A stretch of 64,000 bases of DNA from an uncultured bacterium. Its GTDB lineage: Bacteria > Actinomycetota > Acidimicrobiia > Spongiisociales > UBA5794. The stretch lies in NCBI GenBank assembly GCA_963801165.1, contig CAWDDT010000009.1, positions 256,001-320,000 of the forward strand, given 5' to 3'. Numbering within the stretch: position 1 is the first letter of the stretch; the number at the start of each line of letters is the position of its first letter. A program made the translations under genes and the position numbers. The notes beneath the pieces are model-generated. The model made no database searches, was not told where the DNA came from, and worked only from the letters and a program-made list of their open reading frames with translations. Shown piece by piece: positions 42,358 to 56,263 of the stretch.

Positions 42358-42363
42358 GAGGTA

Positions 42364-42414
42364 CTCAGGTGGTCGTCGGCAGTATCAGCCGGTGGCCACC
42401 ACAATCCACCTGAG
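42364..42414 (+). other. intercistronic stem-loop after the binding-protein gene
   Basis: CTCAGGTGG...CCACCTGAG; typical position for an mRNA-stabilising hairpin. Confidence 0.4.
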
Positions 42415-42430
42415 CCCATTGTCTGAGAGG

Positions 42431-43945
42431 ATGATATCGATGGAACCGGCAGTCACGATGGAAGGCATCACAATGGCCTTCGGACCCAATGAGGTGCTGA
42501 AGGGGATTGACCTTGCCATCGAGCCGGGAAAAGTGACGGCAATGCTCGGCGCCAACGGCGCCGGCAAGTCGACGCTGATCAAGGTCCTCTCGGGTGTATA
42601 CAACGGCTACGGGGGCGTCGTCGTCATCGACGGCGCCCCCGTCGTCATCGACCATCCAACCACGGCCAGGGCACTCGGCATCGAGGCGGTGCACCAGAAA
42701 ATCGCCGACGGCATAGTGCCCGGGCTGAGCGTTGCTGAGAACCTGCTGTTCGAGGGGATCGTCAACAACCAGGTGTCGCGGGTCGCCTCTCTGCGCTCGC
42801 TGATGCCGCGGGCGCGTCAGGTTGCGTCCGTTCTCGACCTCGATTGGTCCGACGATCTGCTCAGAGGCGATGTCTACGAGCTGCCAATTGCCGATCAGCA
42901 GCTCCTCCTCCTGGCACGAGCGCTCGATCACCAACCCCGGCTGCTGATTCTCGACGAGCCCACCTCTGCGCTCTCCGAGACCGAGGCGGAGCGTCTTTTC
43001 GACGTGATTCGCCAATTGCGCGACGGCGGCGTCGCCATCTTCTATGTGTCCCACCGCATCGCAGAGATCGACAGCATCGCGGACCGCCTGCTCGTTCTGC
43101 GCGATGGGGTGATCCGCAGCGAGCAGCTGCGACCATTCGACTGGGCGGCGGCGCTCCACGACATGCTCGACGTTGACGAGGCGGATCGATCGAACCGCAG
43201 TGCTGAGCAGCGGGGCACCGATGTGGCCCTCGAGCTCGCCGGCGTGCAACTCCTCCCCAAGTCCCAGCCCTTCGACCTCGTCATCCGCTCCGGTGAGGTC
43301 ACCGGAGTGTTCGGCCTGTTGGGCTCAGGCGGTGGTCAACTCGCTCACGGGATCTTCGGCGCCGAGCCGTTCGTGTCCGGCGAGATGGTCCTCAAAGGCG
43401 AGCCCTACTCCCCGAAAGCACCGGCCGACGCCATCGCCGCCGACGTCTACATGGTTCCCGAAGACCGGGTCGGAGGAACGTTGATCAAGGGCTGGACGGT
43501 GTCGATGATCGCCACCTTCCCATTCCTCGGGGACGTGTCCCGGCTGGGTGTTCTCAATCCTCTGGCCGAGGCGAAGGTGGGCCGCTCAGTGGTCCAGGAA
43601 TTCGGCGTTGTCGCCCAGTCGGAGGCGGAATCGGTCATGTCTCTCTCCGGCGGCAACCAGCAGAAGGTCGTCGTAGGCCGCTGGCTGCGTAAGCACCCCA
43701 CCGTGATGGTTCTCAACGAACCGTTCCAGGGTGTCGACGTCGGTGCCCGCCACGATCTCGCCGAGAAGGCACGCGAAGTTGCCGGGACGGGCTCGGCGGT
43801 GATCGTGATGTCTACAGATCTAGAAGAAATAATGGAAGTTTCCGACCGGGTCGTCGTGCTCGCGGACGGAAATCTCCGACACGATGCATATCTGTCGGAG
43901 ACAAGTAGGGATGAGATCCTGCAGCGACTCTCGGAGGTTGAGTAA
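42431..43945 (+). CDS. sugar ABC transporter ATP-binding protein (RbsA-like, two NBDs)
   Basis: GANGAGKSTLIK, LDEPTSAL, VPEDR, LSGGNQQKV. Confidence 0.92.
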   Translation: MISMEPAVTMEGITMAFGPNEVLKGIDLAIEPGKVTAMLGANGAGKSTLIKVLSGVYNGYGGVVVIDGAPVVIDHPTTARALGIEAVHQKIADGIVPGLSVAENLLFEGIVNNQVSRVASLRSLMPRARQVASVLDLDWSDDLLRGDVYELPIADQQLLLLARALDHQPRLLILDEPTSALSETEAERLFDVIRQLRDGGVAIFYVSHRIAEIDSIADRLLVLRDGVIRSEQLRPFDWAAALHDMLDVDEADRSNRSAEQRGTDVALELAGVQLLPKSQPFDLVIRSGEVTGVFGLLGSGGGQLAHGIFGAEPFVSGEMVLKGEPYSPKAPADAIAADVYMVPEDRVGGTLIKGWTVSMIATFPFLGDVSRLGVLNPLAEAKVGRSVVQEFGVVAQSEAESVMSLSGGNQQKVVVGRWLRKHPTVMVLNEPFQGVDVGARHDLAEKAREVAGTGSAVIVMSTDLEEIMEVSDRVVVLADGNLRHDAYLSETSRDEILQRLSEVE

Positions 43946-45010
43946 GTGGCCACAACAACGATGACGCCGAAGGGCACGAAGCAGGGGCCGCCAGGCACCG
44001 CGCCGCGTCGAGACGCCCGTGACCTGCTCGTCAAGTACGGCTTCATAGCAGTGACGGTGATCTTTCTCGTGTACTTCATGGCGACCCTGCCGGCGTTCCG
44101 AACCTCGTCGACGATGTTCACGATGCTGAAGTACATCTCGGTCGTTGCCATTGCCGGGTTGGGTGTGACCGTAACGATGGTCGTCGGTGGTCTCGATCTC
44201 TCGGTCGGGGCGACCGCCGGCATGTCGGTGACGGTCGCCGCGATGACGATGGTCATCTATGCGCAGCAGGGCTCGGTGGCAGTCATCGCCGTCATCGCGG
44301 CGGGTGCGATCATCGGTGCCGCTAATGCGCTGTTGATCGTGCTCATGAAGATCCCCGATCTGCTGGCGACCCTGGCAACGATGTTTCTCGTCCAGGGCTT
44401 GAAGCTCGTTCCCGTCGACGGGCAGTCGGTGTCCTCGGGGCTGATCCTCCGTGACGGGTCGGTGGCTCCCGGCAAGTTCACGACTGGCTTCCTCAGGATC
44501 AACCGCGGCTCGATCGGGCCGGTGCCATTCCCCGTGATCATCTTCGCGGTACTTGCGATCTTCACCTGGTTCCTGCTCTCTCGCACCAAGTGGGGCCGGG
44601 TCATGTATGCGATCGGGTCCAACCCGGAGGCGGCCCGTCTCGCCGGTGCCCGGGTCGGTCGCTACAAGGCGTTCGCCTACATGCTCTCCGGCATCTACGC
44701 ATCGATCGCAGGCCTGATTCTTGCCTCCCGTATCGGCCAGGGTGACATCTCTGCCGGGAACTCACTACTCCTCGATGCAGTCGCCGTGGCATTGGTCGGC
44801 ACGTCGGTGCTCGGTGTCGGCAAGCCGAACGCCTTCGGCACAGCGCTCGGCGCAATCCTCATCGGCATCCTTCTCACCGGCACGACCATGATGAACTTCC
44901 AGTACTACTGGCAGGACGTCGTCAAGGGCTTCGTACTCCTGGTTGCTCTGATCTTCTCCTTCACTCTGTCGAGACGGAAGCAACGATTCCAGGCGGCGGT
45001 GCCTCTATGA
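43946..45010 (+). CDS. sugar ABC transporter permease (RbsC-like)
   Basis: GGLDLSVG, GRVMYAIGSNPEAARLAG. Confidence 0.92.
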   Translation: MATTTMTPKGTKQGPPGTAPRRDARDLLVKYGFIAVTVIFLVYFMATLPAFRTSSTMFTMLKYISVVAIAGLGVTVTMVVGGLDLSVGATAGMSVTVAAMTMVIYAQQGSVAVIAVIAAGAIIGAANALLIVLMKIPDLLATLATMFLVQGLKLVPVDGQSVSSGLILRDGSVAPGKFTTGFLRINRGSIGPVPFPVIIFAVLAIFTWFLLSRTKWGRVMYAIGSNPEAARLAGARVGRYKAFAYMLSGIYASIAGLILASRIGQGDISAGNSLLLDAVAVALVGTSVLGVGKPNAFGTALGAILIGILLTGTTMMNFQYYWQDVVKGFVLLVALIFSFTLSRRKQRFQAAVPL

Positions 45011-46122
45011 GCGCTGATCAGGCCAGCAGGACCATCTGGATCGATCCCGTCGACCCCGCCTCCGTCGTCTGTATCGATCAGCGCCTGCTCCCCTTCGAGT
45101 ACCAGGAAGTTGCCATCCGCACCTCGAGCGAGATGGCGACGACGATTGCCGACATGGTTGTCCGCGGCGCCGGGTGCATCGGGGTGTCGGCCGGCTACGG
45201 CATGTATCTGGCGGCCCTCGCCACCGACGGTCTGGGCGCCGCCGAAGCGGATGCGTCGCTACACATGGATGCCAAGGAGCTCGAGGGGAGTCGGCCGACC
45301 GCGGTCAACCTGAGCTGGGCGGTGCAGCGTCAACTGAGGGAGCTGCTCGGTGTTGAGGGTTCGGAGGAGCGGATCGCCAGGGCCAGGGCGCTGGCGGACA
45401 CTATCGCCGACGAGGACGTGTCGTACTGCGCTGCCATCGGTCGCCACGGGCTGGGCATCATCGAAGACCTCCACGACCGCAAGGGCGACACGGTCAACAT
45501 CATGACCCACTGCAATGCGGGTTGGCTGGCGTTCGTCGAGCACGGAACGGCCACTGCTCCCATGTACGCAGCCCACGCAGCGGGCATCCCCATCCATGTC
45601 TACGTCTCGGAGACGCGTCCCCGCAACCAGGGTGCCCGGCTGACGGCCTGGGAGCTGGACCGGGCCGGGATCCCGGTCACCGTGATCGCCGACAACGCGG
45701 CCGGTCACCTGCTGCAGCACGGCATGGTGGACATGGTCATCGTCGGTAGCGATAGAACCACGATCAGCGGTGACGTCGCCAACAAGATCGGCACCTACAT
45801 GAAAGCCGTGGTGGCCAAGGAGAACGGCGTCCCGTTCTACGCCGCACTGCCATCGAGCACGCTTGATCCCAAGCTGCACGACGGTGTCACCGAGATCCCG
45901 ATCGAAGAGCGGGGCGGGCACGAGGTCACCAAGACGACCGGATGGTTCGACGGCAGGCAGGTCGAGATGCAGTCGGCGGCTCCCGGCGTGGGCGCCGCCA
46001 ACTATGGGTTCGACGTCACCCCGCGCCGGTTCGTGACCGGGATCATCACCGAGCGCGGTGTCTGCGAGGCGAACGAACAAGCAATCCTGGCGATGTATCC
46101 CGAGTTCGCCGCAAAGGGATGA
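45007..46122 (+). CDS. mtnA: S-methyl-5-thioribose-1-phosphate isomerase, paralogue 1
   Basis: DQRLLP, MVVRGAG, RPTAVNL, THCNAGWLA, ETRPRNQG, ANKIGT, FDVTP. Confidence 0.88.
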   Translation: MSADQASRTIWIDPVDPASVVCIDQRLLPFEYQEVAIRTSSEMATTIADMVVRGAGCIGVSAGYGMYLAALATDGLGAAEADASLHMDAKELEGSRPTAVNLSWAVQRQLRELLGVEGSEERIARARALADTIADEDVSYCAAIGRHGLGIIEDLHDRKGDTVNIMTHCNAGWLAFVEHGTATAPMYAAHAAGIPIHVYVSETRPRNQGARLTAWELDRAGIPVTVIADNAAGHLLQHGMVDMVIVGSDRTTISGDVANKIGTYMKAVVAKENGVPFYAALPSSTLDPKLHDGVTEIPIEERGGHEVTKTTGWFDGRQVEMQSAAPGVGAANYGFDVTPRRFVTGIITERGVCEANEQAILAMYPEFAAKG

Positions 46123-46151
46123 AGACCGGGTAGCGGGGCAGAAGGAAACCA

Positions 46152-48119
46152 ATGCACAACAGGTGGAGTGAGGAGCGGGCGGCCGGCTTCGAGAGCCCTC
46201 TCGATCGGTGCGTGTATGCCTCGAGACTGCTCGGCGCAGACACGGCGCTCGTTCTGCACGGCGGCGGCAACACATCTGTGAAGCTCAGGGAGCAGAATCT
46301 CTACGGCGAGCCGGTCGATGTGCTCTACATCAAGGCGAGCGGTCGAGACCTCGTCGACATTGACGACGAGGGATTTGCCCCTCTCGACCTCACCCGGGTG
46401 CGCCGGCTCGTCGAGCTGGATGAGCTCTCGGATACCGCGATGCTCAACGAGTTGAAGGGGGCCCGGCTGAGCGCAGACGCACCCGTGCCCTCGGTCGAGG
46501 CGATCCTGCACGCAATCATCCCCAGCCACGCCGTGCAGCACGCTCATCCCAACGCGCTCCTCGCCATATCGAACACCGTCGACGGTGAGGAGAAGGTCAG
46601 AAAGCTATACGGGAGCCGAGTGGTCGTCGTTCCGTACACGATGTCGGGATTCCGCGCCGCGACCGCGGCCGCAAGGGCCTACGCCCGGGAGGCGACCGGC
46701 GAAACTGAAGGTGTTGTGCTCATGAACCACGGCATCTTCACCTTCGGGGATTCACCCCGCGAGGCATATCACCGGATGGTCGACCTGGTCGGTGCCGCCG
46801 AGGACTTCCTCGCCGAGCACTCGATGGGGGGAGAGTCGCCCCGGCCGGATCGAGAGCCCCCGGTCATCGACCGGTGCGACCTGGCCGGCCTCCGCAAGGA
46901 GATCTCGGATATCGCCGGGAAGCCGTGCATCGTGCGTCGTCACCGTGACGAGGTCAGCTGGGCGTTCTCGCAGCGCCCCGACCTGGCAGCGGTGAGCCAG
47001 CAGGGAGTAGCAACACCCGACCATGTCATCTGGACCAAGCGGGTTCCGCTCCTGGGTCGGGACGTTGCCACCTACGCCAAGGACTACGAGGCCTACTTCG
47101 ACGAATATGCGGTCGGGCGCGCGCTCCGAATGCTCGATCCGGCGCCACGGGTGATCATCGACCCCGAGTTGGGGATGGTCACCGCCGGGCCCGATGTCGA
47201 CGCCGAGCAGGCGGCCGCCGACATCTATCTCCAGATCATCGACGTCATCGAGCACGCTGAGGGCCTGGGCGGCTACTCCGCCCTTCCCGCCGGTGACATT
47301 TTCGATCTCGAGTATTGGGAGCTGGAGCAGCTGAAGCTCGACCTCGTTCCCCATGAGGGTGAGTTCACCGGCGAGGTCGCCGTGGTCACCGGGGCGAACT
47401 CAGGGATCGGGCGTGGCTGCGCGCTGGCGCTGCTGGCAAAGGGAGCGGCAGTAGTGGGCCTCGACATCAACCCCGCGGTTTCCGAGATGTCGGACGATCC
47501 CGCCTTCTACGGCATCCAGTGTGACCTCTCCTCGCCGCAGGAAACCTCGGCCGCGCTCGACCGTGGTGTCGAGCGATTCGGCGGCGTCGACATGCTCGTG
47601 GCCGCCGCAGGGCTCTTCCCCGAATCGTCCCCGATCTCCGCTCACGACCCGACCGCGTGGCGCCGAGCCATGTCCGTCAACGTCGACGGACTGGTGCAAC
47701 TCCTGTCGATGATGCACCCCCTCCTCGTGCAGGCGCCGCGCGGCGGTCGTGTCGTGGTGATCGGATCGAAGAACGTCGTCGCACCCGGTCCGGGCGCCAG
47801 CGCCTACTCGGCTTCCAAGGCAGCCGCCAACCAGATCGCACGTGTCGCGGCGCTCGAATGGGCGCCGGAGGGGATCAGGGTCAACTCGGTCCATCCGGAC
47901 GCGGTCTTCGATACCGCATTGTGGACACCGGAGCTCCTGGCGGCACGGGCGGCGCACTACGGCATGACCGTTGAGGACTACAAGCGCCGCAACCTGATGA
48001 GTGTGGAGATCACCAGCGCCGCGGTCGGCGAGGTCGTTGCCACGATGCTCGGCGACGTCTTCGGCACGATTACGGGGGCGCATATCCCCATAGACGGCGG
48101 CAACGACCGCGTGATTTGA
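46152..48119 (+). CDS. bifunctional class II aldolase / short-chain dehydrogenase
   Basis: N-terminal GGGNTSVK, PSVEAILH, HAHP, NHG; C-terminal TGANSGIG, YSASK. Confidence 0.88.
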   Translation: MHNRWSEERAAGFESPLDRCVYASRLLGADTALVLHGGGNTSVKLREQNLYGEPVDVLYIKASGRDLVDIDDEGFAPLDLTRVRRLVELDELSDTAMLNELKGARLSADAPVPSVEAILHAIIPSHAVQHAHPNALLAISNTVDGEEKVRKLYGSRVVVVPYTMSGFRAATAAARAYAREATGETEGVVLMNHGIFTFGDSPREAYHRMVDLVGAAEDFLAEHSMGGESPRPDREPPVIDRCDLAGLRKEISDIAGKPCIVRRHRDEVSWAFSQRPDLAAVSQQGVATPDHVIWTKRVPLLGRDVATYAKDYEAYFDEYAVGRALRMLDPAPRVIIDPELGMVTAGPDVDAEQAAADIYLQIIDVIEHAEGLGGYSALPAGDIFDLEYWELEQLKLDLVPHEGEFTGEVAVVTGANSGIGRGCALALLAKGAAVVGLDINPAVSEMSDDPAFYGIQCDLSSPQETSAALDRGVERFGGVDMLVAAAGLFPESSPISAHDPTAWRRAMSVNVDGLVQLLSMMHPLLVQAPRGGRVVVIGSKNVVAPGPGASAYSASKAAANQIARVAALEWAPEGIRVNSVHPDAVFDTALWTPELLAARAAHYGMTVEDYKRRNLMSVEITSAAVGEVVATMLGDVFGTITGAHIPIDGGNDRVI

Positions 48120-48194
48120 GAACACCGCACGTGAGGTGCGGAGAAAAGTTGACAGATAGCTAGCCCCTCGGAGCAGGGGACAGGAGGATGGAGA

Positions 48195-48989
48195 ATGGAC
48201 TGGGGCATGAAGCGTCGGCTGGCGCAGATCATCCCGCCGGAGACAGGGCACGCGTTCTTTATCGCCATCGACCACGGATACTTCCTTGGACCAACACGCA
48301 TGCTGGAACGACCCGGCGAGACTGTGCGCGACCTCACTCCGATCGCCGATGCGCTCTTTGTGACACGGGGCGTCCTCAGAAACGCCATCCCACCCGAGAC
48401 CAAGCCGAATGTGATCCTCAGAATCAGCGGTGGCACCAGCATCGTCGGGCCGTCGCTCGAGAACGAGCAGCTGGTCGTTGACCCGGAGGAGGTGATTCGT
48501 CTGGGCGCTTGCGCAGTCGGCATCTCGGTCTTCGTCGGCTCGGAGTACGAACGGGAATCGCTCGGGAACCTTGCCCGTGCGGTGAACCAGTTCGAGCGGT
48601 ATGGCATCCCGGTCATGGCGGTCACGGCCGTCGGCAAGGAGCTCGAGAAGCGCGACGCCCGCTACCTCGCCCTCAGCTGTCGGATCGCAGCAGAGCTGGG
48701 AGCCCGGGTCGTCAAGACCTATTGGTGCGAGGACTTCGAGAAGGTCACCTCTTCGTGTCCGGCACCCGTGGTTATCGCGGGTGGGCCGAAGACCGACGAC
48801 GCCTACGAGGTCTTCTCGTTCGTTCGCGATGGCATCGATCGAGGCGCCATCGGCGTCAACCTGGGTCGCAATATCTGGCAGCACCACGATCCCGTGGGCG
48901 TCGCCCGAGGCTTGCGTGCCGTGATCCACGAGGGCGCGTCACCAGAGCAGGCCAACGCCATGGTGGCGCAGGAACCGGTGGTGGTTTGA
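48195..48989 (+). CDS. lsrF: LsrF-like class I aldolase / 3-hydroxy-5-phosphooxypentane-2,4-dione thiolase
   Basis: MDWGMKRRL, AIDHGYFLGP, RIAAELGARVVKTY, IAGGPK, GRNIWQ. Confidence 0.8.
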   Translation: MDWGMKRRLAQIIPPETGHAFFIAIDHGYFLGPTRMLERPGETVRDLTPIADALFVTRGVLRNAIPPETKPNVILRISGGTSIVGPSLENEQLVVDPEEVIRLGACAVGISVFVGSEYERESLGNLARAVNQFERYGIPVMAVTAVGKELEKRDARYLALSCRIAAELGARVVKTYWCEDFEKVTSSCPAPVVIAGGPKTDDAYEVFSFVRDGIDRGAIGVNLGRNIWQHHDPVGVARGLRAVIHEGASPEQANAMVAQEPVVV

Positions 48990-48992
48990 CCC

Positions 48993-49289: not shown

Positions 49290-49372
49290 TCGCCGTGAAG
49301 GGTCGCAATGCCTCGAGGTGCTTGCGCGTCGATCCAGGCGTCGAGCCTGAACTGGAATTATTCAACACACTC
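49275..49372. repeat. 98-bp MITE-like element, copy 2
   Basis: Ends GAGGGTGTTG ... CAACACACTC; shares ATCGCCGTGAAG(C/G)GTCGCA and GAGCCTGAACTGGAATT with 7703-7799. Confidence 0.65.
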
Positions 49373-49394
49373 CAAAGAGCGGAGGAGAAGAAGG

Positions 49395-50609
49395 ATGGCC
49401 CCCGACTACGAGATCCTCAACCCGGAGACGGTCCCGGCATACATCGACAGAACACCCCGGCTGGACGGCATCGTCGACACCTCCACGCTGGAAGTGTCGG
49501 AGGTCGGTGACGGTAACCTGAACCTCGTCTTCGTCTGCAAGGATGGAAACGGCGACGGCATCTGTCTCAAGCAGTCGTTGCCCTACGTCCGGCTGGTCGG
49601 CGAGGGGTGGCCGCTGACACCGGAGCGAGTCATCGCCGAGGCGCGCGGGCTCGCCGCTGCTGTCGATCACGTCCCGGATCTGGTTCCCGCCTATTACGGA
49701 CTGGACGAGGCCAACTATGTGCTGGCCATGGAGAACCTCATTGGCTGGGACATGTGGCGGACCCAGCTGAATGAGGGTGTCTCCCACCCCGGTGTCGGCG
49801 CCAAGCTCGGCCGGTACGTGGCCAATCTCTGTTTCTACACCTCGTTTTTCACCATCGATCAGGGCGAGATCAAAGAGCGGCTCGCCGCAGCGATCAACCC
49901 GGAGCTGTGCAAGATCACCGAGGACCTCGTCTTCACCGAGCCGTACATCGATGTCCCCAACAACAGTTACGTCGATGAGCTGGTCCCCGAGGTGGAGGGC
50001 ATGCGCGCCGACGCCAGGCTCCGCGCCGACGTCGGGATGCTGAAGTACAAATTCATGACCGCAGGGCAGGCGCTGATCCACGGCGACCTGCACACCGGCT
50101 CCGTCATGGTGCGCCGTGGTGAGAACGGCGCCGAGTGCAAGGTCATCGACCCCGAGTTCTGCTACTACGGGCCGGTGGGCTTCGATCTCGGTGCGCTCTT
50201 TGGCAACTACCTCGCCGCCCGGGCCCGCGCCGCAGTTCTCGACCGACCAGCCGAATACCAGCAATGGTTGGCCGATCTGGGTCCGGAGACGTGGGATGCC
50301 TTCGCCGCGGAGATGCACCGCTTGTGGCCGGAGCGGCTCGACAAGACATGGACCGACGGTTTCCTCGAGGCCTGGCTGGCCCAGGTCGCCAGGGACACCA
50401 TCGGGTACGGCGGCTGCAAGGCGAACCGGCGCATCATCGGGCTCGCCAAGGTCACCGACATCCAGCAACTCCCGAACGAAGAGCACGTCAAGGCGGCCAC
50501 GATGGTTCTCCGCACCGCCAGCACCTGGATTCGGGAGCGCGACGGCCTCGGGACCGTCGCCGCGGCCAACGAGGTGTTCGAGACGATCCGGGCGAAGGTC
50601 CTGGGCTGA
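49395..50609 (+). CDS. mtnK: S-methyl-5-thioribose kinase
   Basis: EVGDGNLNLVF, KQSLPYVR, NPELCKITEDLVFTEPY, HGDLHTGS, IDPEF. Confidence 0.92.
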   Translation: MAPDYEILNPETVPAYIDRTPRLDGIVDTSTLEVSEVGDGNLNLVFVCKDGNGDGICLKQSLPYVRLVGEGWPLTPERVIAEARGLAAAVDHVPDLVPAYYGLDEANYVLAMENLIGWDMWRTQLNEGVSHPGVGAKLGRYVANLCFYTSFFTIDQGEIKERLAAAINPELCKITEDLVFTEPYIDVPNNSYVDELVPEVEGMRADARLRADVGMLKYKFMTAGQALIHGDLHTGSVMVRRGENGAECKVIDPEFCYYGPVGFDLGALFGNYLAARARAAVLDRPAEYQQWLADLGPETWDAFAAEMHRLWPERLDKTWTDGFLEAWLAQVARDTIGYGGCKANRRIIGLAKVTDIQQLPNEEHVKAATMVLRTASTWIRERDGLGTVAAANEVFETIRAKVLG

Positions 50610-51691
50610 TGTTGGATCTCTCGCTGGCCGATGACTTCCTCGCCAAGCTGCAACCGTCGGTGGCCTGGGTCGACGATCACATCGAGATCATCGACCAGAC
50701 CAAGCTGCCCGCCGAGCTCGAGATCCTCCAACTGCGCCGGGTCGACGAGGTGGTCGACGTTATCTACCGGCTGGCGGTGCGGGGGGCGCCCGCGATCGGG
50801 GCATGTGGCGCCCTCGGCATGGTCGTCGGCCTCGACGAAAGGCAGCCGCAAACCGCGGCCGACGCAGTTGCCGTGCTCGACGAGCTTGTGGAGACGATCG
50901 GCAACGCCCGGCCCACCGCGGTGAACCTGAGCTGGGCGGTGAAACGCCTGCGGGACGCCGCCGTGTCCGGAAGCGATGCCGCCGGGGTGAGACGGCTTGC
51001 CATGGCGGAAGCCCGGGCGATCATCGCCGAGGATCGCGACGCCTGCACCCGGATCGGTATCAACGGCCGCAAAGAGCTCGAGGGTCTGGACAAGATCCTC
51101 ACGCACTGCAACACAGGCAGACTCGCCACCGCCGGTTGGGGCACTGCTCTCGGCGTCGTCTATGCGAAGGCAGCGGCCGGTGAGCCGGTCGAGGTGCTTT
51201 CCTCCGAAACACGGCCGCTGTTGCAAGGTGCCCGGCTGACAACCTGGGAGTTGCACGACGCCGGTATCCCGGTGACCCTCATGCCGGACGGAGCCAGCTC
51301 CACGGCGATGGCGCAGGGCAAGGTCCAGGCGGTCATTGTCGGCGCCGATCGGATTGCTGCCAACGGCGACACCGCCAACAAGATCGGGACCCTTACCCAC
51401 GCCGTCAACGCCAGGTTCGCCGGGATCCCTTTCTACGTGGCCGCTCCGCTCTCGACGTTCGATACCTCTTTGAGCAGCGGCGCCGGGATAGAGATCGAGC
51501 TGCGGCCCGATGACGAGATGAGGAGGTGGCGGTCGGAGCCGACCGCCCCGGGCGACATTGCGGTGTGGAACCCCGCCTTCGACGTGACCCCCGCCGATTT
51601 GATCACCGCAATCATCACCGAGGTTGGGGTGCTGAAGCCCCCCTATGAGGAGTCGATCCGGGTCGCCTTCGAGGCTGGAGGGAAACCGTGA
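50609..51691 (+). CDS. mtnA: S-methyl-5-thioribose-1-phosphate isomerase, paralogue 2
   Basis: DQTKLP, VRGAPAIG, RPTAVNL, THCNTGRLATAGWGTA, ETRPLLQGARLT, NPAFDVTP. Confidence 0.9.
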   Translation: MLDLSLADDFLAKLQPSVAWVDDHIEIIDQTKLPAELEILQLRRVDEVVDVIYRLAVRGAPAIGACGALGMVVGLDERQPQTAADAVAVLDELVETIGNARPTAVNLSWAVKRLRDAAVSGSDAAGVRRLAMAEARAIIAEDRDACTRIGINGRKELEGLDKILTHCNTGRLATAGWGTALGVVYAKAAAGEPVEVLSSETRPLLQGARLTTWELHDAGIPVTLMPDGASSTAMAQGKVQAVIVGADRIAANGDTANKIGTLTHAVNARFAGIPFYVAAPLSTFDTSLSSGAGIEIELRPDDEMRRWRSEPTAPGDIAVWNPAFDVTPADLITAIITEVGVLKPPYEESIRVAFEAGGKP

Positions 51692-52587
51692 GCGAATGGA
51701 AGCAGGCGACCCAAGCGGTTGCCGACGGCATACGCCGGCGGGTGCTCGAGCACGTACTCGCCAACAACGGCGGATATATGAGCCAGGCATGCTCCGCGGC
51801 TGAGATCTTTGCGATGTTGTATTCCCGGGTGATGAACCTCGGTGCCAGCCAGGCCCCTCTCGAGCCTCGCCGGTTTGCGGGCGTGCCCGGCCCGGGAGTG
51901 CCCTTCATCACCGGCGCTGACTACAACGGGCCCCGCGGACCCGGGTACGACCGCTTCATCTTCTCCCCGGCTCACTATGCATTGGTGCTGTATGCCACCC
52001 TGATCGAGGTTGGCAGGCTTGCCGAGAGGGGGCTTGATCACTTCAACGAAGATGGCAGCACGGTCGAGATGATCGGTGCCGAGCATTCCCCCGGTGTCGA
52101 GACCACCACCGGGTCTCTCGCTCAAGCGTTGAGCCAGGCCGGCGGTATCGCCCTGGCACGCAAGCTGCGTGGCGACACCGGCAACGTCTGGGTGATGATG
52201 TCCGACGGTGAGTTTCAGGAGGGACAAACCTGGGAGGCCGTCGCACAGGTCGCCCGCTTCGAACTCGACAACCTCAGGGTCATCGTCGATGCGAACGGCC
52301 AGCAATGCGACGGCTGTCTCGACGAGGTGGAGACGGCCGACCCGTTGACAAACAGGATCCGGGCGTTCGGTGCCAGCGCCATCGAGAGCAACGGGCACGA
52401 TCTCGACGGTCTGGAAGAGGCGATGACTATGGCGACCGGCAAGCCGCACTTCGTGATTGCCCGGACGGACCCGGTGCGCGGGCTTCCTCTGTTTGCGGAT
52501 AGAGCACCCCTGTTGCACTACTTGCGTTTCACCTCACCCGAGGAGAGGGCCCGTTACGAGGCGGCTTACGAAGAGATGGTGAGTTGA
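51688..52587 (+). CDS. split transketolase, N-terminal (ThDP-binding) subunit, atypical
   Basis: DRFIFSPAHY, PGVETTTGSL, SDGEFQEGQTWEA...NGQQCDG. Confidence 0.85.
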   Translation: MSEWKQATQAVADGIRRRVLEHVLANNGGYMSQACSAAEIFAMLYSRVMNLGASQAPLEPRRFAGVPGPGVPFITGADYNGPRGPGYDRFIFSPAHYALVLYATLIEVGRLAERGLDHFNEDGSTVEMIGAEHSPGVETTTGSLAQALSQAGGIALARKLRGDTGNVWVMMSDGEFQEGQTWEAVAQVARFELDNLRVIVDANGQQCDGCLDEVETADPLTNRIRAFGASAIESNGHDLDGLEEAMTMATGKPHFVIARTDPVRGLPLFADRAPLLHYLRFTSPEERARYEAAYEEMVS

Positions 52588-52588
52588 G

Positions 52589-53596
52589 ATGGAGATCGTC
52601 AAGCGGCCGCACGTTCAGAATTTCATCGATTGGAGTCGCGATAAGCCCGAGGTGGTCGTCCTCACCGCCGATCTGACCAACTCGAGCGAGGTGGGGCAAT
52701 GGCGGGACACCTACCCCGACCGCTTCTTTGCGATGAAGATGGCCGAGCAGAACATGATGGGTTTCGCCGCCGGGCTTGCCCGCGAGGGCTACGAGCCGTG
52801 GATACACACCTTCGCCGTGTTCATCTACCGGCGTCCGCTCGATCAGCTTGCCATGTCGATCGCATACCCCAACCTTCCGGTGCGGTTTGTCGGGTTCCTC
52901 CCCGGGATCACGACTCCAGGCGGGGTCACTCACCAGGCTATTGAGGATCTCGCCGTGATGCGGGCGACGCCGAACATGACCATCCTCGAGACCGGCGACG
53001 CCACCGAGGTAGAGAGCGTGCTCGATGTCGCCCACGGTGTCGAAGGGCCCGTCTACATCCGGATGTTGCGAGGCGAGGTACCCCGGTTGTTCGCCAAAGA
53101 CGAGCCGATGCGGCTCGACAAGGTCAGGGTGCTCAGCGAGGGCGACGACGTCACCGTGTTCACCGCCGGTATCACCACAGAAGAGGCCATGCGAGCGGCC
53201 GCTCCTCTCGCCGCTGCCGGGGTCGGGATGACCCATGTCCATGTCTCGACCCACAAGCCGTTCAGCGATCCCCTGATCGTCGAGTCGATCAAACGCGCCA
53301 GGTACGGCGTGATGACGCTGGAGAACCACACGATCATCGGTGGCCTCGGCTCGGCGGTGGCTGAGTTGATGGCGGAGAACGCCGTCGGGCAACGTCTTGT
53401 CAGGCTGGGTCTGCGTGACACGTACGCTCACGGCGCCAGCCGGCAGTACCTGATGAAGGAGTACGGTCTCGATGCCCCCGCTCTTGTGAAGGGCATCGAA
53501 GACCTCCTCGGGAGACCGACGGGGATCACGGAGCCGGATCTCGAAGCGGTGCGTATCGAAGCCGTCCATAGCATGGCCAAGGCGGAGGCGCTGTGA
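52589..53596 (+). CDS. split transketolase, C-terminal (pyrimidine-binding) subunit
   Basis: LTADLTNS, MAEQNMM, GGVTHQAIED, ENHTIIGGLG. Confidence 0.88.
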   Translation: MEIVKRPHVQNFIDWSRDKPEVVVLTADLTNSSEVGQWRDTYPDRFFAMKMAEQNMMGFAAGLAREGYEPWIHTFAVFIYRRPLDQLAMSIAYPNLPVRFVGFLPGITTPGGVTHQAIEDLAVMRATPNMTILETGDATEVESVLDVAHGVEGPVYIRMLRGEVPRLFAKDEPMRLDKVRVLSEGDDVTVFTAGITTEEAMRAAAPLAAAGVGMTHVHVSTHKPFSDPLIVESIKRARYGVMTLENHTIIGGLGSAVAELMAENAVGQRLVRLGLRDTYAHGASRQYLMKEYGLDAPALVKGIEDLLGRPTGITEPDLEAVRIEAVHSMAKAEAL

Positions 53597-54726
53597 TGAT
53601 CGAGCCGACTTCCCTCACCGTCAGCGGCGGCCGAATCGAAGCCGTATACGAGTTCTATGGTGACGTTGCCGAGGCGGAAGCGCGCGTCGATGCCTTGCGG
53701 GTGGAACAGACGATCGAGTTCCCGGCCGACCTCGTCCCGGATGACGACATCCAGCGGGAGGTCGTCGGCCGTGTCGAGTCGCTCGAAGTAGTAGGCGACG
53801 ATGTGACGCGTGCCGCGATCAGCTATGCCGTGGAGGACACCGGGTTCGAACTCCCCCAGCTCATGAACGTCCTGTGGGGAAATAGCGCCTTGCTGCCGGG
53901 AATCCGGCTCGTGGACTTCACCCTGCCAGATTCTCTGCTGGAGTACTTTCCCGGACCGACGTACGGAATCGCGGGTCTCCGCGAGATGTTCGACGCACCG
54001 TCCCGTCCTCTGCTGGCGACTGCGCTGAAACCGATGGGTCTGTCGTCCGAGCGGCTGGCCGGCGAGGCATACGAGCTTGCGCTGGGTGGAATCGACATGA
54101 TCAAGGACGACCACAGCCTCGCCAACCAGCCTTTTGCCCCGTTCGCAGAGCGGGTGCAGCGCTGCGCCGAGGCGGTGGCCAAGGCGAACGAGCAGACCGG
54201 TTTCGGGGCCGTCTATATGCCGAGCATCAACGCCCCGTACAACGAGCTGGAGCGGCGTGTGGAGGTTGCCCTGGACGCCGGCGCAGGTGCGTTTCTCGTC
54301 CTCCCCGGTCTCACCGGGTTCGATCAGATGCGCTATTTGGCCTCCGAGGTCGACGTCCCCATCATGGGGCACCCCGCCTTCCTCGGCTCGTACTCTGCCT
54401 CCCCGACAAACGGCATTGCCCACGGCAAGCTGTACGGAACGTTGATGCGTCTCGCCGGTGCCGACCTCTCGATCTTTCCGAACTTTGGCGGCCGATTCAG
54501 TTTCACCCGTGAAGAATGCCGTGACGTCGCCGAGCGCCTCACCGAGCCGCTTGGCGACTTGAAGCCGGCGTTCCCGGCACCGGGTGGAGGCATGACTCTC
54601 TCGAGAGTTAGCGAGATAGTCGACTTCTACGGCAACGACGCGGCGCTTCTCATCGGCGGCGATCTCTATCGTGGGGAGAGCCTGGCGAGAACCGCAGCCG
54701 CCTTTCGCGAAGCGGTATCCGCCTGA
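53593..54726 (+). CDS. RuBisCO-like protein (form IV)
   Basis: EQTIE, ALKPMGLS, GGIDMIKDDH (KDDH instead of the RuBisCO KDDE), HPAF, PAPGGGM, LIGG. Confidence 0.9.
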   Translation: MMIEPTSLTVSGGRIEAVYEFYGDVAEAEARVDALRVEQTIEFPADLVPDDDIQREVVGRVESLEVVGDDVTRAAISYAVEDTGFELPQLMNVLWGNSALLPGIRLVDFTLPDSLLEYFPGPTYGIAGLREMFDAPSRPLLATALKPMGLSSERLAGEAYELALGGIDMIKDDHSLANQPFAPFAERVQRCAEAVAKANEQTGFGAVYMPSINAPYNELERRVEVALDAGAGAFLVLPGLTGFDQMRYLASEVDVPIMGHPAFLGSYSASPTNGIAHGKLYGTLMRLAGADLSIFPNFGGRFSFTREECRDVAERLTEPLGDLKPAFPAPGGGMTLSRVSEIVDFYGNDAALLIGGDLYRGESLARTAAAFREAVSA

Positions 54727-54756
54727 TCGATCCTCGCCGGCAGCGGCGAGCCCGTA

Positions 54757-55692
54757 TCAGGCGAGAAGTGCCCTGGCGAGACCGTCGTCGATGGCCAGTT
54801 CGTTGATGATGCCTGCGGCGATTGCTCCCTTGACCGGTTCCACCTTCTCAACTCCGCCCGCGGCCGCGATGACCCGTTTCGAAGCCCTCAGATCGTCGAG
54901 TGTCAGTGAGATGGGGTGTAGTGCGTCCGGTTTCACGGCGTTGCCATCTGCGTCGTAATACAGGCCAAAAACCTCTCCGACCGCGCCTGCGGCGATGATT
55001 TCCTCCATGGCGTCTTCATCGAGATAGCCGGCCTGCACCAGGAGCGACTCGGGGCCGATGACGCCCACGGCCACCATCACCATGTCGGCCTTGCGGGCGC
55101 GCTCGAGCGCCGTCGCCACCGGCTCGGATGCGAAGAAGTTGCCGGCGACCTCGGCCGATGGGGCGAATCCAGGGGATGGGATGTGCATGACTCTGGCGCC
55201 GAACTTCAGCCCCAACGTGTTCGTGACCTCGACCGCGGGGGCGATGTTGGCCGTGGTCGTGTGACCGAAAGCGTCCACCAGCGTCACTCCGGAGGTACGT
55301 GTGCGCCGCGCTCGTTGGGCGGCGGCACCAAGCGTTCGTCCCCACCCGGCCGCAATCGTGGTCGAGCCGGTTGCCACCATATGCTCCAATCTGCGGGCCA
55401 TGGCAGTTGCGGCCCCCTCTCGGGGTGACTCGCCATCGAGCGCTACCTCGACGGTAGCCCCGGCCAGCCCGTACTTCTCGATGAGTTCCTCAGCCAGGCT
55501 CGCGGTCTCCGGCAGCGGCTCAGTTACGATCACGCGCACGATGCCGTCGCGGGCAGCGTCGGCGAGGAGACGGCTCACCGTTGACCGGGAGATCCCCAAC
55601 CGATCGGCAACGGCCTGTTGATTGAAACTACGCTCGTGATAGAGCCAGGCCGCCCGGATTGCGAGCTCTCTGCGAGGATTGTCGTCGTCCAC
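54757..55692 (-). CDS. SorC/LsrR-family sugar-phosphate-binding transcriptional regulator
   Basis: AAWLYH...QQAVADRLGISRSTVSRLL HTH, GWGRTL, GAVGEVFG, AGGVEK. Confidence 0.9.
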   Translation of the reverse strand: MDDDNPRRELAIRAAWLYHERSFNQQAVADRLGISRSTVSRLLADAARDGIVRVIVTEPLPETASLAEELIEKYGLAGATVEVALDGESPREGAATAMARRLEHMVATGSTTIAAGWGRTLGAAAQRARRTRTSGVTLVDAFGHTTTANIAPAVEVTNTLGLKFGARVMHIPSPGFAPSAEVAGNFFASEPVATALERARKADMVMVAVGVIGPESLLVQAGYLDEDAMEEIIAAGAVGEVFGLYYDADGNAVKPDALHPISLTLDDLRASKRVIAAAGGVEKVEPVKGAIAAGIINELAIDDGLARALLA

Positions 55693-55715
55693 TAGCGGGA
55701 AGTATCATCCTTCCG

Positions 55716-55748
55716 CGAGCATTTGTCTAACCCACGCACATTTGTGCA
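55716..55748. promoter_or_regulatory. operator sites between the divergent regulator and rbsD genes
   Basis: CGCACATTTGTGCA (55735-55748) matches the 41153 site at 13 of 14 positions; weaker site CGAGCATTTGTCTA at 55716. Confidence 0.7.
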
Positions 55749-55768
55749 CGGGCGTCTGGGAGGCGAAG

Positions 55769-56221
55769 ATGAGAACGTCGGGTGTCCTTCATCCAGGGCT
55801 GATCGAACTCATCGCGGCGGCTGGTCACGGCGATCATATCGTGCTGGCCGATGCCGGTCTTCGGATCCCCGACGACAAGGCACGTATCGACCTCGGTGTT
55901 ACTTGTGGTGTGCCAACGATGGCGCAGGTAGTGGCTGCGGTGAAGCAAGAGTTGGTGATCGAGGCGGCAATCGTCGCCACCGAGTTCTCCGACTGGAATC
56001 CGGACGTCTATCGCGACGTCACCGGTCTTCTCGAAGTTGAGCCGACGGCGAAACCGCACGCCGAACTGATGGCCGACGCTGCAGAATCAGCGTTTGCGTA
56101 TGTGAAAACGGGTGAGTGCACAGCCTATTCGAGCGTTGTACTGGTATGCGGTGTGAATTACCTGGACGAGGCGGTGGCGTTGTACAAGGAGCTGCACCCG
56201 GTGGCCCCTGATCCGTTCTGA
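55769..56221 (+). CDS. rbsD: D-ribose pyranase (RbsD/FucU family)
   Basis: GHGDHIVLADAGL, RIDLG, KTGECTAYS. Confidence 0.85.
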   Translation: MRTSGVLHPGLIELIAAAGHGDHIVLADAGLRIPDDKARIDLGVTCGVPTMAQVVAAVKQELVIEAAIVATEFSDWNPDVYRDVTGLLEVEPTAKPHAELMADAAESAFAYVKTGECTAYSSVVLVCGVNYLDEAVALYKELHPVAPDPF

Positions 56222-56263
56222 CGGATCGGCGGTGCCGGTCCGGGGACTAGCCTCGCCGCGCTG

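Follow-up and report, generated by a model that had tools for sequence, protein, structure and literature searches.

Described routes and the operon in the window

Among the closest described systems is the MTA-isoprenoid shunt of Rhodospirillum rubrum and Rhodopseudomonas palustris, composed of MtnP, MtnA, the DeepYkr RuBisCO-like protein (RLP) RLP1 and a cupin 1-methylthioxylulose-5-P methylsulfurylase; in these two species RLPs of this type were shown to make 1-methylthioxylulose-5-P. The DHAP shunt (MtnK/MtnP, MtnA and the aldolase Ald2) shares its substrates and first two enzymes with the locus analysed here, and R. palustris runs the aldolase route and the RLP route side by side. [quoted passage not shown] As in the shunt, this RLP is the sole RuBisCO-family gene of the genome, and the route would likewise be oxygen-independent. 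The locus differs in that a two-subunit ThDP enzyme takes the place of the RLP-adjoining cupin and in that MtnN/MtnK and an ABC importer provide the entry, whereas the shunt employs MtnP. Full-text literature searches returned no description of this pairing or its route.

The operon is encoded on the forward strand and includes a three-gene sugar ABC importer (41233..45010), consisting of a binding protein with a lipoprotein-type N-terminus (41233-42357, PF13407), an ATPase (42392-43945, PF00005) and a permease (43946-45010, PF02653). This is followed by MtnA copy 1 (5-methylthioribose-1-P isomerase, 45007..46122; TIGR00512, 390.9 bits against a cut-off of 279), a class II aldolase/short-chain dehydrogenase (SDR) fusion (46152..48119; NF006196, 912.9 bits against 831; PF00596, PF00106), an accessory LsrF-like DeoC-family enzyme (48195..48989; NF006081, 332.7 bits against 297), MtnK (5-methylthioribose kinase, 49308..50609; TIGR01767, 393.7 bits against 275) and MtnA copy 2 (50609..51691, starting at ATG 50609; TIGR00512, 403.5 bits against 279). 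The MtnK family match begins at residue 34 of the reading frame, which makes a start further downstream, near 49395, likely. The aldolase/SDR fusion resembles a fused form of the last steps of the DHAP shunt and is a candidate branch of that type, and the LsrF-like enzyme was seen in Acidimicrobiia-type clusters only (9/50 RLP-linked genome loci). The remaining genes are TK-N (51688..52587, 299 aa), the N-terminal, diphosphate-binding (PP domain) subunit of a remodelled transketolase-like ThDP enzyme, TK-C (52589..53596, 335 aa; PF02779, PF02780), its C-terminal subunit with the pyrimidine-binding and C-terminal domains, and a form IV RLP (53593..54726, 377 aa), putatively a methylthioribulose-1-P 1,3-isomerase. 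A SorC/DeoR-type sugar-phosphate-binding regulator on the reverse strand (54757..55692; PF04198, E 4.8e-46) is convergent with the operon, and its homologues adjoin the transketolase-like genes in many loci.

Reading frames overlap or abut from MtnK through MtnA, TK-N and TK-C to the RLP: the stop of MtnA copy 2 and the start of TK-N share GTGA, a single nucleotide separates TK-N from TK-C and, as the initial annotation had stated, the RLP gene (start GTG 53593 or ATG 53596) overlaps the TK-C stop (TGA 53594-53596). In 52 of 74 loci the estimated distance between TK-C and RLP was zero or negative. Elsewhere, the host genome (98% complete) encodes MtnN, two O-acetylhomoserine sulfhydrylases as potential consumers of methanethiol, an ordinary 671-aa transketolase and another split transketolase. 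MTAP, MtnB and ARD gave no match over cut-off in this genome, and a search of it with a single cupin query, that of locus L157, found no relative.

Fold and donor site of the transketolase-like enzyme

TK-N matched Pfam PF00456 with an E value of 2e-21, but its best NCBIfam transketolase model gave 157 bits against a cut-off of 488 and the DXS model TIGR00204 gave 154 bits against 466 for the enzyme, which falls under all curated transketolase cut-offs. Using HMMER, TK-N was matched to the solved split transketolase of Carboxydothermus hydrogenoformans (6yak, E 1e-33) and TK-C to 6yaj (E 1.3e-62), DXS (8a29, E 9.9e-34) and human transketolase (E 1.2e-31). The AF2 model of TK-N (pLDDT 86.4, with low confidence at 123-127 and 212-217) aligned with VIA Z scores of 30.4 to 6yak, 26.8 to E. 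coli transketolase and 22.8 to DXS. Fold and domain order are those of canonical transketolases, and the split-gene form is that of the split ones, but a long branch of 3.17 parts the family from E. coli TktA and the host's own transketolase. Across many phyla members are 55-90% identical, conservation reaches at least 95% at 83 and 105 positions, and the family is distinct and widely spread.

Active-site residues were compared in three alignments: one made by HMMER against human and solved split transketolases, one by MAFFT that included E. coli TktA, DXS and 66 relatives, and one by MAFFT of N-subunits bridged by the host genome's own ordinary split transketolase. The preprint 10.1101/719906 lists nine residues within 5 Å of the donor C1-C2 in E. 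coli transketolase and reports that H100 hydrogen-bonds the donor hydroxymethyl OH, in agreement with the role the initial annotation had given to the GHP histidine, and that the changes H100L, H100F and H100Y were required for pyruvate, which has no such hydroxyl, to serve as donor. Four of these nine first-shell residues of TktA (H26, H100, I189 and D469 in Ec numbering) were replaced in 65-66 of the 66 relatives. Y30 of TK-N (51775-51777) stands at Ec H26, with Tyr in 66/66 relatives, bearing out the reading of GGYMSQACS as a substitute for GGH. The Ec H100 column held Met in 50, Leu in 15 and His in one of the 66 sequences in the alignment with TktA and DXS, and EMIGAEH does stand for QGHP; the partner of Ec H100 in TK-N varied with the alignment between M128, I129 and a one-residue gap between the two. 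E. coli DXS was also found, as claimed, to be without this histidine, carrying a hydrophobic F107 in that column, and it keeps the Ec H26 and D469 equivalents.

Three further replacements, absent from the list in the initial annotation, were observed at Ec I189 (C207 of TK-N, 65/66 relatives), Ec H461 (F103/L104 of TK-C, 66/66) and Ec D469 (G111 of TK-C, 66/66), as was an insert of about 27 residues at N52-80 of TK-N. The replacement of GDGE by SDGE was confirmed, S172 standing in place of the first Gly of GDG (G154S). The SPAH motif lies where SKGH was expected, but its His is kept (H96, equivalent to Ec H66; H in 58, Q in 7 and a gap in 1 of 66) and the sole change is the Gly preceding it, so that it does not count among altered catalytic histidines. 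Of the Ec histidines, H26, H100 and H461 are replaced, whereas H66, H261 (H277 of TK-N in the bridged alignment) and H473 are kept. The four motifs return in single-chain relatives (104-120 of 120) and in the split N-subunit matches listed (105-120 of 120), and are family signatures rather than chance resemblances.

Further conserved equivalents are those of Ec L116, R358, S385, E411, F434, F437 and R520, with TK-N keeping the Mg/diphosphate ligands D173 and N203 and TK-C keeping E53 (the cofactor Glu), R6, S32, R161 and H115. Residues R358, S385 and R520, which we take to be the phosphate site, fit a phosphorylated substrate with glyceraldehyde-3-P as a product. The intact catalytic core (the SDG...N motif, cofactor Glu and H66/H261/H473 equivalents), together with the strong constraint on the family, predicts an active enzyme. 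It is exceedingly unlikely that this is a dead or purely structural or regulatory relative: two classical active-site histidines are lost, as such a protein would allow, but the replacements are themselves invariant and the sequence is conserved across phyla.

Pairing with the RuBisCO-like protein

The RLP gave 99 bits against PF00016 and fell under the cut-offs of the MtnW, form III RuBisCO and OiaX models, its best solved structure being 3qfw (E 8.6e-76, 259 bits; next 155 bits). Its identity of approximately 45-50% to assayed or cupin-linked RLPs and its match to this structure assign it, by kinship, to the methylthioribulose-1-P isomerase type. The transketolase-linked RLPs share 43-57% identity among themselves and with cupin-linked RLPs, and in the tree five clusters of cupin-fused RLPs, as well as the RLP of locus L157, which adjoins a cupin and a Cys/Met PLP enzyme, nest among the transketolase-linked ones; the RLP of the window groups with these cupin-fused and cupin-adjacent proteins. 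Therefore partner choice switches within one RLP family, and the mixing suggests that the transketolase-like enzyme takes the place of the known downstream cupin.

Among 71 loci centred on the transketolase-like genes, 50 had an adjoining RLP, 12 had none within flanks of 1.5 kb or more and nine were too short, giving 50/62 evaluable loci; of 80 RLP-centred metagenome loci, 44 had the transketolase-like genes, 15 did not, with flanks of 2.2 kb or more, and 21 were too short (44/59 evaluable). This linkage is conserved in many different phyla. MtnA was the commonest neighbour, MtnA and/or MtnK lying within 10 kb in 24/50 RLP-linked loci, as in Colwellia (phosphorylase-MtnA-TKN-TKC-RLP), and in four of five stand-alone modules MtnA was found elsewhere in the genome. 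Of the 15 evaluable RLP-centred loci without the transketolase-like genes, 10 carried MtnA and an aldolase/SDR fusion instead, and therefore the RLP product can have other outlets.

A RuBisCO-family gene was searched for in four genomes with RLP-less transketolase-like loci and was found in none; together with the 12/62 loci above, this indicates that the substrate need not come from an RLP. One clade is without any RLP, and an RLP partner is therefore not all that defines the enzyme; in this clade it follows a XylB-like kinase, a Zn-dehydrogenase and an AraD-like epimerase, a gene set that, on paper, would also end in a 1-deoxy-D-xylulose-5-P-type sugar. The proposal that the enzyme is tuned to donors without a C1 hydroxyl is partly supported: it is favoured by Met/Leu/Ile at H100, by the hydrophobic residue of E. 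coli DXS at that column and by the RLP that is gene-coupled to the enzyme across phyla.

Proposed reaction and alternatives

The reading we prefer, at a probability of roughly 60%, is that of a transketolase-fold ThDP enzyme whose donor pocket was rebuilt for a ketose-phosphate without C1 hydroxyl and which acts as a dedicated step after the RLP. Judged by family cut-offs, 5-methylthioribose, imported or MtnN-derived, would be phosphorylated by MtnK and converted by MtnA to methylthioribulose-1-P, which the RLP, in line with assays of related RLPs from other species, would turn into 1-methylthio-D-xylulose-5-P. The most likely task of the transketolase-like enzyme, which would occupy the position of the cupin methylsulfurylase, is cleavage of this compound between C2 and C3: ThDP would add to C2, the C2-C3 bond would break and, as we infer from the retained phosphate-site residues, glyceraldehyde-3-P would be released. 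The C2 unit might lose methanethiol by beta-elimination and leave as an acetyl unit, chemically the most natural of three exits, be protonated to 2-methylthioacetaldehyde or be transferred to an acceptor aldehyde. With a ThDP enzyme in the cupin's place, glyceraldehyde-3-P and a C2 unit are expected, and not DXP and a glutathione persulfide-type adduct. In contrast to the DHAP shunt, which yields DHAP from C1-C3, this branch would yield triose phosphate from C3-C5 after 1,3-isomerisation. The proposed chemistry, and nothing else, resembles phosphoketolase (Xfp), in which a beta-carbon leaving group departs after C2-C3 cleavage and acetyl-ThDP forms; phosphoketolase keeps the histidines lost here, and no phosphoketolase family matched either subunit at E 0.001 or better in Pfam and NCBIfam. 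Perhaps 5-deoxyribose could pass through the same enzymes, with 1-deoxy-D-xylulose-5-P as a second substrate of the cleavage, but non-oxidative acyloin cleavage to two aldehydes is not favourable, so that plain lyase action is a weaker proposal for the 1-deoxy substrate. Against the preferred reading count also the operon aldolase/SDR, which could consume methylthioribulose-1-P directly, and H133 of TK-N, invariant and four to five residues downstream of the lost H100, which could reach the donor pocket.

That the two proteins are partners in a chemistry unlike that of R. rubrum, with another RLP product (for instance an enol, or a different 1,3- or 1,2-isomer) or with the RLP acting after the ThDP enzyme, is rather unlikely. 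The RLP function is assigned from sequence, RLP clades differ in reaction, the identities within this group are only 43-57%, and D469G and H26Y fall at positions that presumably read the C3/C4 hydroxyls, so that substrate stereochemistry may differ; however, cupin-linked RLPs nest inside the transketolase-linked ones and the commonest neighbour, MtnA, yields the known RLP substrate. An ordinary isozyme, using xylulose-5-P or fructose-6-P as donors and aldose-phosphates as acceptors to feed pentose phosphates from salvaged sugars into central metabolism, has little to recommend it: the fold, nearest solved relatives, phosphate site and cofactor motifs would suit it, as would the RLP-less clade, where a xylulokinase-like kinase and AraD-like epimerase have xylulose-5-P as textbook product, but five Ec residues (H26, H100, I189, H461, D469) are replaced in 65-66/66 relatives, model scores are low and the branch is very long, the genome already has two other transketolases, and the compound that RLPs of this type are known to make is no ordinary pentose phosphate. 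Synthesis in the manner of DXS, from a C2 donor (pyruvate, 2-methylthioacetaldehyde or acetaldehyde) and glyceraldehyde-3-P to DXP or its methylthio analogue, is similarly improbable. DXS belongs to the same ThDP superfamily, handles a 1-deoxy ketose phosphate and glyceraldehyde-3-P, shares a hydrophobic residue at the H100 column and is matched by TK-C almost as well as transketolase; NCBI labels some relatives "DXS N-terminal domain-containing protein", and the operon aldolase would yield such aldehydes. The family has Tyr and Gly where DXS keeps the Ec H26 and D469 equivalents, however, the DXS domain arrangement differs, transketolase is the nearer relative in both structure and sequence (Z 30 versus 22.8), remaking the RLP product from aldolase products would be a futile loop, and 37/50 modules have no aldolase/SDR nearby. 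On the preferred reading, the transketolase-like enzyme and the RLP probably degrade the sulfur sugar left from S-adenosylmethionine.

Active site and class of the transketolase-like pair

The active-site motifs of the split ThDP enzyme encoded by TK-N (51688-52587, +) and TK-C (52589-53596, +) were examined in three alignments: HMMER alignments to the solved split transketolase (6yak/6yaj), to human transketolase and to DXS; 66 family members aligned by MAFFT with the annotated records of E. coli TktA and DXS; and a MAFFT alignment of the N-subunits bridged by the ordinary split transketolase of the same genome. Reference residues are given in E. coli TktA numbering (Ec) and counts refer to the 66 aligned members. 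All three domains that make up the transketolase fold (PP, Pyr and C-terminal) were matched (Pfam PF00456, PF02779 and PF02780). An AF2 model of TK-N (pLDDT 86.4, pTM 0.89), less confident in two loops beside the changed motifs, was aligned with 6yak at a Z score of 30.4 and an rmsd of 2.8 over 271 residues; it matched split and human transketolase at Z 30, bacterial transketolases at Z 26-27, PDH E1 at Z 23.0 and DXS at Z 22.8.

The cofactor machinery is intact and conserved. The ThDP/Mg motif of TK-N, S172-D173-G174 with N203, was aligned with Ec D155 and N185, the first glycine of GDG being replaced by Ser172 and the metal ligands D173 and N203 being kept, and the cofactor-activating glutamate is found as E53 of TK-C, aligned with Ec E411. 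The pocket, in contrast, is rebuilt around the donor C1-C2 and around the hydroxyl-reading aspartate. Tyr30 stands at Ec H26 in all 66 members and in each of the three alignments. The column of Ec H100 is occupied by Met128, by Ile129 or by a gap between them, depending on the alignment (M or L in 65/66, I in the bridged N-subunit alignment), so that H100 is lost. Cys207 replaces Ec I189 in 65/66, with 'QCDG' present in 120/120 of the single-chain relatives listed, and in TK-C, Ec H461 is replaced by Phe or Leu (66/66). Ec D469, which we take to be the aspartate sensing the hydroxyl that adjoins the reacting carbon of the sugar, is G111 of TK-C in every member, a placement with which HMMER against 6yaj concurs ('gedg' against '.pgg'). 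Conversely, Ec H66 is kept as H96 (His in 58/66, Gln in 7), Ec H261 as His277 in the bridged alignment, and the equivalents of R358, S385, E411, F434, F437, H473 and R520 are all retained, the two arginines R358 and R520 with S385 presumably forming the phosphate site. An insert of about 27 residues, specific to the family, separates the first helix pair from the DRF motif. The invariant H133, near the lost H100, might reach the pocket.

As the three alignments agree, the four motif statements of the initial annotation can be accepted with one exception: GGYMSQACS for GGH, EMIGAEH for QGHP and SDGE for GDGE were correctly recognised, and SPAH does take the place of SKGH but conceals no lost histidine. 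Of the five donor-site histidines of TktA, H26 and H100 are thus lost, and H66, H261 and H473 are kept. According to a preprint on E. coli transketolase, nine residues lie within 5 Å of C1-C2 of bound xylulose-5-P (H26, H66, H100, L116, I189, H261, S385, D469 and H473), and engineered H100L/F/Y variants allow the enzyme to use pyruvate (10.1101/719906). Four of these nine donor-site residues (H26, H100, I189 and D469) are replaced almost invariantly throughout the family.

The pair was placed outside transketolase proper (EC 2.2.1.1), because two defining residue sets, the donor histidines and D469, and all curated cut-offs fail, although the fold and the cofactor motifs are those of transketolase. 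The best NCBIfam transketolase model, NF004559, gave 157 bits for TK-N and 205 bits for TK-C against a cut-off of 488, and TIGR00232 gave 65 and 34 bits against 682. DXP synthase was rejected with a TIGR00204 score of 154 bits against a cut-off of 466 and with Tyr and Gly found by MAFFT at H49 and D427 of E. coli DXS, which occupy the columns of H26 and D469. Phosphoketolase was likewise rejected, no XFP family being present among the Pfam and NCBIfam matches at E 0.001 or better, and no NCBIfam model named for apulose-4-P transketolase or sulfo-transketolase was among the matches of the pair. Only transketolase-subunit clusters were returned by the ESM Atlas for TK-C, and the public names of the family are 'transketolase', 'DXS N-terminal domain-containing protein' and 'thiamine pyrophosphate-dependent enzyme'.

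Operon and genome context

A single string of plus-strand genes runs from about 41.2 to 54.7 kb of the window (GC 0.62-0.67). It opens with a sugar ABC importer (lipoprotein binding protein, ATPase and permease), continues with a first copy of MtnA (5-methylthioribose-1-P isomerase), a fusion of a class II aldolase with a short-chain dehydrogenase (aldolase/SDR) and an LsrF-like enzyme of the DeoC family, and closes with MtnK (5-methylthioribose kinase), the other MtnA, TK-N, TK-C and the RuBisCO-like protein RLP (53593-54726, +), after which a SorC/DeoR-type regulator lies on the minus strand. From MtnK to RLP, the last five genes are arranged for translational coupling: one base belongs to both the MtnK stop and the ATG of MtnA, GTGA is common to the end of this MtnA and the start of TK-N, a gap of one base parts TK-N from TK-C, and the TGA stop of TK-C (53594-53596) overlaps the RLP start (GTG 53593 or ATG 53596), an overlap to which the initial annotation had already pointed. 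The enzyme is thus translationally coupled to MtnK, MtnA and RLP. Curated NCBIfam cut-offs were passed by MtnK, both MtnA copies, the aldolase/SDR fusion and the LsrF-like protein, and by none of TK-N, TK-C and RLP. Consensus scans for promoters and terminators across 40800-56300 yielded sites no more numerous than in shuffles.

Two further reading frames lie downstream in the window. A 630-aa ORF (57077-58969, -) has a C-terminal end resembling, by eye, a histidine-kinase domain, carries five copies of the short tandem repeat 'IVEA[SP]' and is mirrored by an opposite-strand ORF (57483-58520). The C-terminal half of a 380-aa ORF (59520-60662, +) resembles GTP cyclohydrolase I, also by eye, with roughly 180 residues of a different domain ahead of it; this ORF might encode a fusion enzyme of the folate pathway.

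The genome, with a completeness of 98%, encodes MtnN, two O-acetylhomoserine sulfhydrylases and, elsewhere than in the operon, an ordinary transketolase in addition to the ordinary split one used for the bridged alignment; MTAP, MtnB and ARD gave no match over their cut-offs. RLP is its sole RuBisCO-family gene. No cupin methylsulfurylase lies beside RLP in the window operon, and a search of the genome with one cupin query, that of the metagenome RLP locus L157, gave no match, which as a single-query result is weak.

Distribution of the family and partners of the RLP

One genome per species was scanned for relatives of TK-N at 55-90% identity. A total of 71 loci were found, in Actinomycetota, Chloroflexota, Planctomycetota, Acidobacteriota, Myxococcota, Bacillota, Nitrospirota, Spirochaetota and Pseudomonadota, with the isolates Colwellia chukchiensis, Erythrobacter longus and Sporotomaculum syntrophicum among the carriers. 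RLP adjoins the pair in 50 of the 71 loci and is absent from 12 despite flanks of at least 1.5 kb, the remaining 9 contigs being too short. MtnA and/or MtnK accompany 24 of the 50 RLP-linked loci, and in the other 26 the three genes stand alone among unrelated neighbours; MtnA is encoded elsewhere in 4/5 tested genomes of this latter kind. The presence of MtnA did not discriminate RLP-linked genomes (4/5) from RLP-less genomes (3/5). The gap between TK-C and RLP (stop to start) was estimated, with starts extrapolated from tblastn, at zero or less in 52/74 loci. In the converse view, the metagenome loci most similar to an alignment of TK-linked RLPs were taken (the best 80 of 581), and the pair was adjacent in 44, absent from 15 with flanks of at least 2.2 kb, and not assessable in 21 that were too short.

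Gene orders vary among carriers. Erythrobacter has MtnA, TK-N, TK-C, RLP and a nucleoside transporter, and Colwellia a nucleoside phosphorylase, MtnA, TK-N, TK-C and RLP. The Colwellia chukchiensis phosphorylase (L033:8002-13071) passes the cut-off for purine-nucleoside phosphorylase (NF006054, 336 bits) and not that for MTAP, which hints at entry via methylthioinosine or 5'-deoxyinosine. Two Desulfallaceae loci (L059:6283-9792 and L060:6336-9845) carry a 1169-aa gene of pyruvate:ferredoxin oxidoreductase type directly upstream of TK-N on the same strand. Some modules have a reductase in their vicinity: the SDR fusion (the window), an SDR (L034), an aldo-keto reductase (L051) and a Zn-ADH (L060). 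Long relatives of TK-C numbered 387, and the 120 of these that were listed are all single-chain TK-N+TK-C proteins of 606-689 aa without an RLP domain. These single-chain members (P0128-P0247, at least 120 clusters) have the same pocket signature, most with F or Y for the first Q of NGQQCDG.

The best solved relative of the window RLP is 3qfw, presumably RLP1 of R. palustris, at 259 bits, with other solved RLPs and RuBisCOs at 155 bits or less. 3qfw is an RLP (PMC13454268). The window protein falls below the MtnW, form III and OiaX cut-offs, and an RLP of the apiose type was rejected on an OiaX score of 80.7 bits against a cut-off of 700; the genomic link to MtnA is present in the window, where MtnA lies two genes upstream. 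By sequence comparison RLP is closest to the DeepYkr type (methylthioribulose-1-P 1,3-isomerase) rather than to YkrW/MtnW, Photo or true RuBisCO. PMC5893883 describes the DeepYkr RLPs of R. rubrum and R. palustris as converting methylthioribulose-1-P to 1-methylthioxylulose-5-P and 1-methylthioribulose-5-P at 3:1, a neighbouring cupin then removing the methylthio group with glutathione to give DXP, and R. palustris as running this RLP/cupin shunt side by side with an aldolase (DHAP) route.

Seven long RLP relatives were found, comprising five RLP-cupin fusions (clusters P0123-P0127, 696-780 aa, 43-48% identical to the window RLP), a SorC-RLP product and an RLP extended at its N-terminus by a repeat-rich stretch, and no RLP-transketolase fusion was among the seven. 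The last of these, P0122 (682 aa), bears about 270 N-terminal residues of repeats with 'FxxMFxxSPxxLxKM' and has a eukaryote-like look. At L157, a cupin, a CoA-binding protein and a Cys/Met PLP enzyme lie beside RLP. The five fusions and this locus independently reproduce the RLP-cupin signature described for the DeepYkr shunt. In an RLP tree obtained by a quick search with a midpoint root, cupin-linked RLPs were interspersed with TK-linked ones, the L157 protein being sister to a TK-linked RLP (support 100) and the cupin-fused clade sister to two others (support 84); therefore these proteins constitute one RLP family with alternative downstream partners, of which the transketolase-like pair was the commonest in the samples examined. 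A third context was seen in low-GC metagenome loci (L109-L111, L115, L117, L118, L120, L130, L132, L133 and L138), ordered as ABC ATPase, MtnA, aldolase/SDR fusion, RLP, FUSC-like membrane protein and Zn-dehydrogenase, with neither the pair nor a cupin nearby.

In a quick-search tree of concatenated TK-N and TK-C sequences, calculated without bootstrap, 3.17 changes per column lie on the branch between the whole family and the transketolases of E. coli and of the genome itself. A clade of 50 rows (SH-aLRT 99) contained 45 RLP-linked, 4 unknown-context and 1 RLP-less rows. Two basal groups without RLP have the same pocket signature, so that the identity of the enzyme is independent of RLP: a clade of 10 rows from Acidimicrobiales and Aldehydirespiratoraceae, nine RLP-less (L054, L035, L057, L075, L052, L062, L066, L063 and L037) and one of unknown context, and a group of three Propionibacteriales rows. 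No RuBisCO-family match was found in 4/4 RLP-less genomes tested, the completeness of which is not known. In the two loci of the clade in which the operon was annotated (L035:3083-13065 and L054:3156-12870), the pair closes an operon of an ABC importer, an XylB-like FGGY kinase, a Zn-dehydrogenase, a protein resembling AraD (218-235 bits, under the cut-off of 251 for an L-ribulose-5-P 4-epimerase model) and a SorC regulator. Upstream of the pair in L047 (Propionibacteriales), two Zn-dehydrogenases, a SorC regulator and a class II aldolase-like protein were annotated, and the examined stretch contained no kinase. In principle, 5-deoxy-D-ribitol would lead to 1-deoxy-L-ribulose-5-P, as would phospho-AI-2 reduced at C3, and the 4-epimer of this sugar is DXP. 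The RLP-less operon may accordingly represent an undescribed 1-deoxy-pentulose pathway (from 5-deoxyribose/5-deoxyribitol or AI-2) converging on DXP, and both contexts can be read as supplying a 1-deoxy or 1-substituted D-xylulose-5-P, as the pocket suggests.

Proposed reaction and its meaning

The predicted substrate class of the enzyme is 1-methylthio- (or 1-deoxy-) xylulose-5-P, to which a probability of about 0.6 was assigned. The enzyme would take the RLP product, 1-methylthio-D-xylulose-5-P; ThDP would add to C2, the C2-C3 bond would break as in transketolase and G3P would leave. The suggestion of the initial annotation that the enzyme is tuned to donors without a C1 hydroxyl is partly supported: it is consistent with the loss of H100 and draws nothing from SPAH, in which no histidine is altered. 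5-Deoxyribose, the other SAM by-product, handled by MtnK and MtnA in the DHAP shunt, would yield DXP at the RLP step, and the same enzyme could cleave DXP. The pathway would resemble the MTA-isoprenoid shunt up to RLP and differ after it, the window operon having no cupin methylsulfurylase; the step following RLP would instead work like the half-reaction of transketolase or phosphoketolase.

For the C2 fragment, several fates can be written. The ThDP-bound carbanion would have the methylthio group on the adjacent carbon, and expulsion of methanethiol would give acetyl-ThDP, providing methanethiol for MetY and an acetyl unit; the same expulsion chemistry is performed by phosphoketolase with hydroxide and by ThDP enzymes with fluoropyruvate. 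Alternatively, the fragment could be protonated to 2-methylthioacetaldehyde or transferred to an acceptor. A 'methylthio-ketolase', in which cleavage and methanethiol expulsion are followed by release of acetyl-ThDP as acetate, acetyl phosphate or acetyl-CoA, is considered rather unlikely. In it, a transketolase scaffold would have acquired chemistry of the phosphoketolase type independently, with the invariant Cys207 and Tyr30 replacing the lost histidines as acid/base or acyl-transfer groups.

Cleavage of the RLP product by the transketolase-like enzyme has to be weighed against routes that bypass it. The window itself encodes the aldolase/SDR fusion and the LsrF-like thiolase, and a plain lyase reaction on DXP is thermodynamically unattractive; both points count against the proposed cleavage, as would entry of the invariant H133 into the pocket. 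A second MtnA, the aldolase/SDR fusion and the LsrF-like thiolase (over the NF006081 cut-off) occupy 45007-48989 of the same operon. These three may be a second outlet for the RLP product, to DHAP and acetyl-CoA, because 4-oxidation of a 1-deoxy-pentulose-5-P would yield the known substrate of LsrF, or they may be a fused DHAP shunt. Among the best 80 of 581 RLP loci, 10 of the 15 evaluable ones without the pair have MtnA and the aldolase/SDR fusion instead, and there are therefore other outlets for the RLP product or substrate. A full-text literature search found no link between RLP and a transketolase in methylthioribose/MTA salvage, a mention in the founding RLP papers or in supplements being possible; PMC7895386, which matched looser term pairs, was set aside since its subject is Calvin-cycle operons.

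The analysis suggests that SAM by-products are salvaged by a new branch in which a rebuilt transketolase is central, and there is a fair prospect that the reaction is new to ThDP enzymes. Direct tests are feasible, as some carriers can be cultured (C. chukchiensis, E. longus and S. syntrophicum). The family would represent a natural transketolase with pocket changes of the kind engineered for non-hydroxylated donors (cf. 10.1101/719906). If the methanethiol-expelling reaction were true, an oxygen- and glutathione-independent methionine salvage would be closed, with all carbon (G3P and acetyl) and the sulfur (methanethiol to MetY) recovered, and the RLP-less clade would mark a second, as yet undescribed pathway degrading 1-deoxy-pentuloses (5-deoxyribose or AI-2) via DXP. 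Methylthioadenosine and 5'-deoxyadenosine are made by every SAM-using cell and must be removed. To our knowledge, removal without oxygen proceeds through either the DHAP shunt or the RLP/cupin shunt; a third outlet is suggested here, composed of a RuBisCO-like isomerase and a rebuilt transketolase, in phyla from Actinomycetota to Pseudomonadota. If real, it would change the annotation of sulfur and carbon salvage in a large share of environmental genomes, in which these genes are now named just 'transketolase'.
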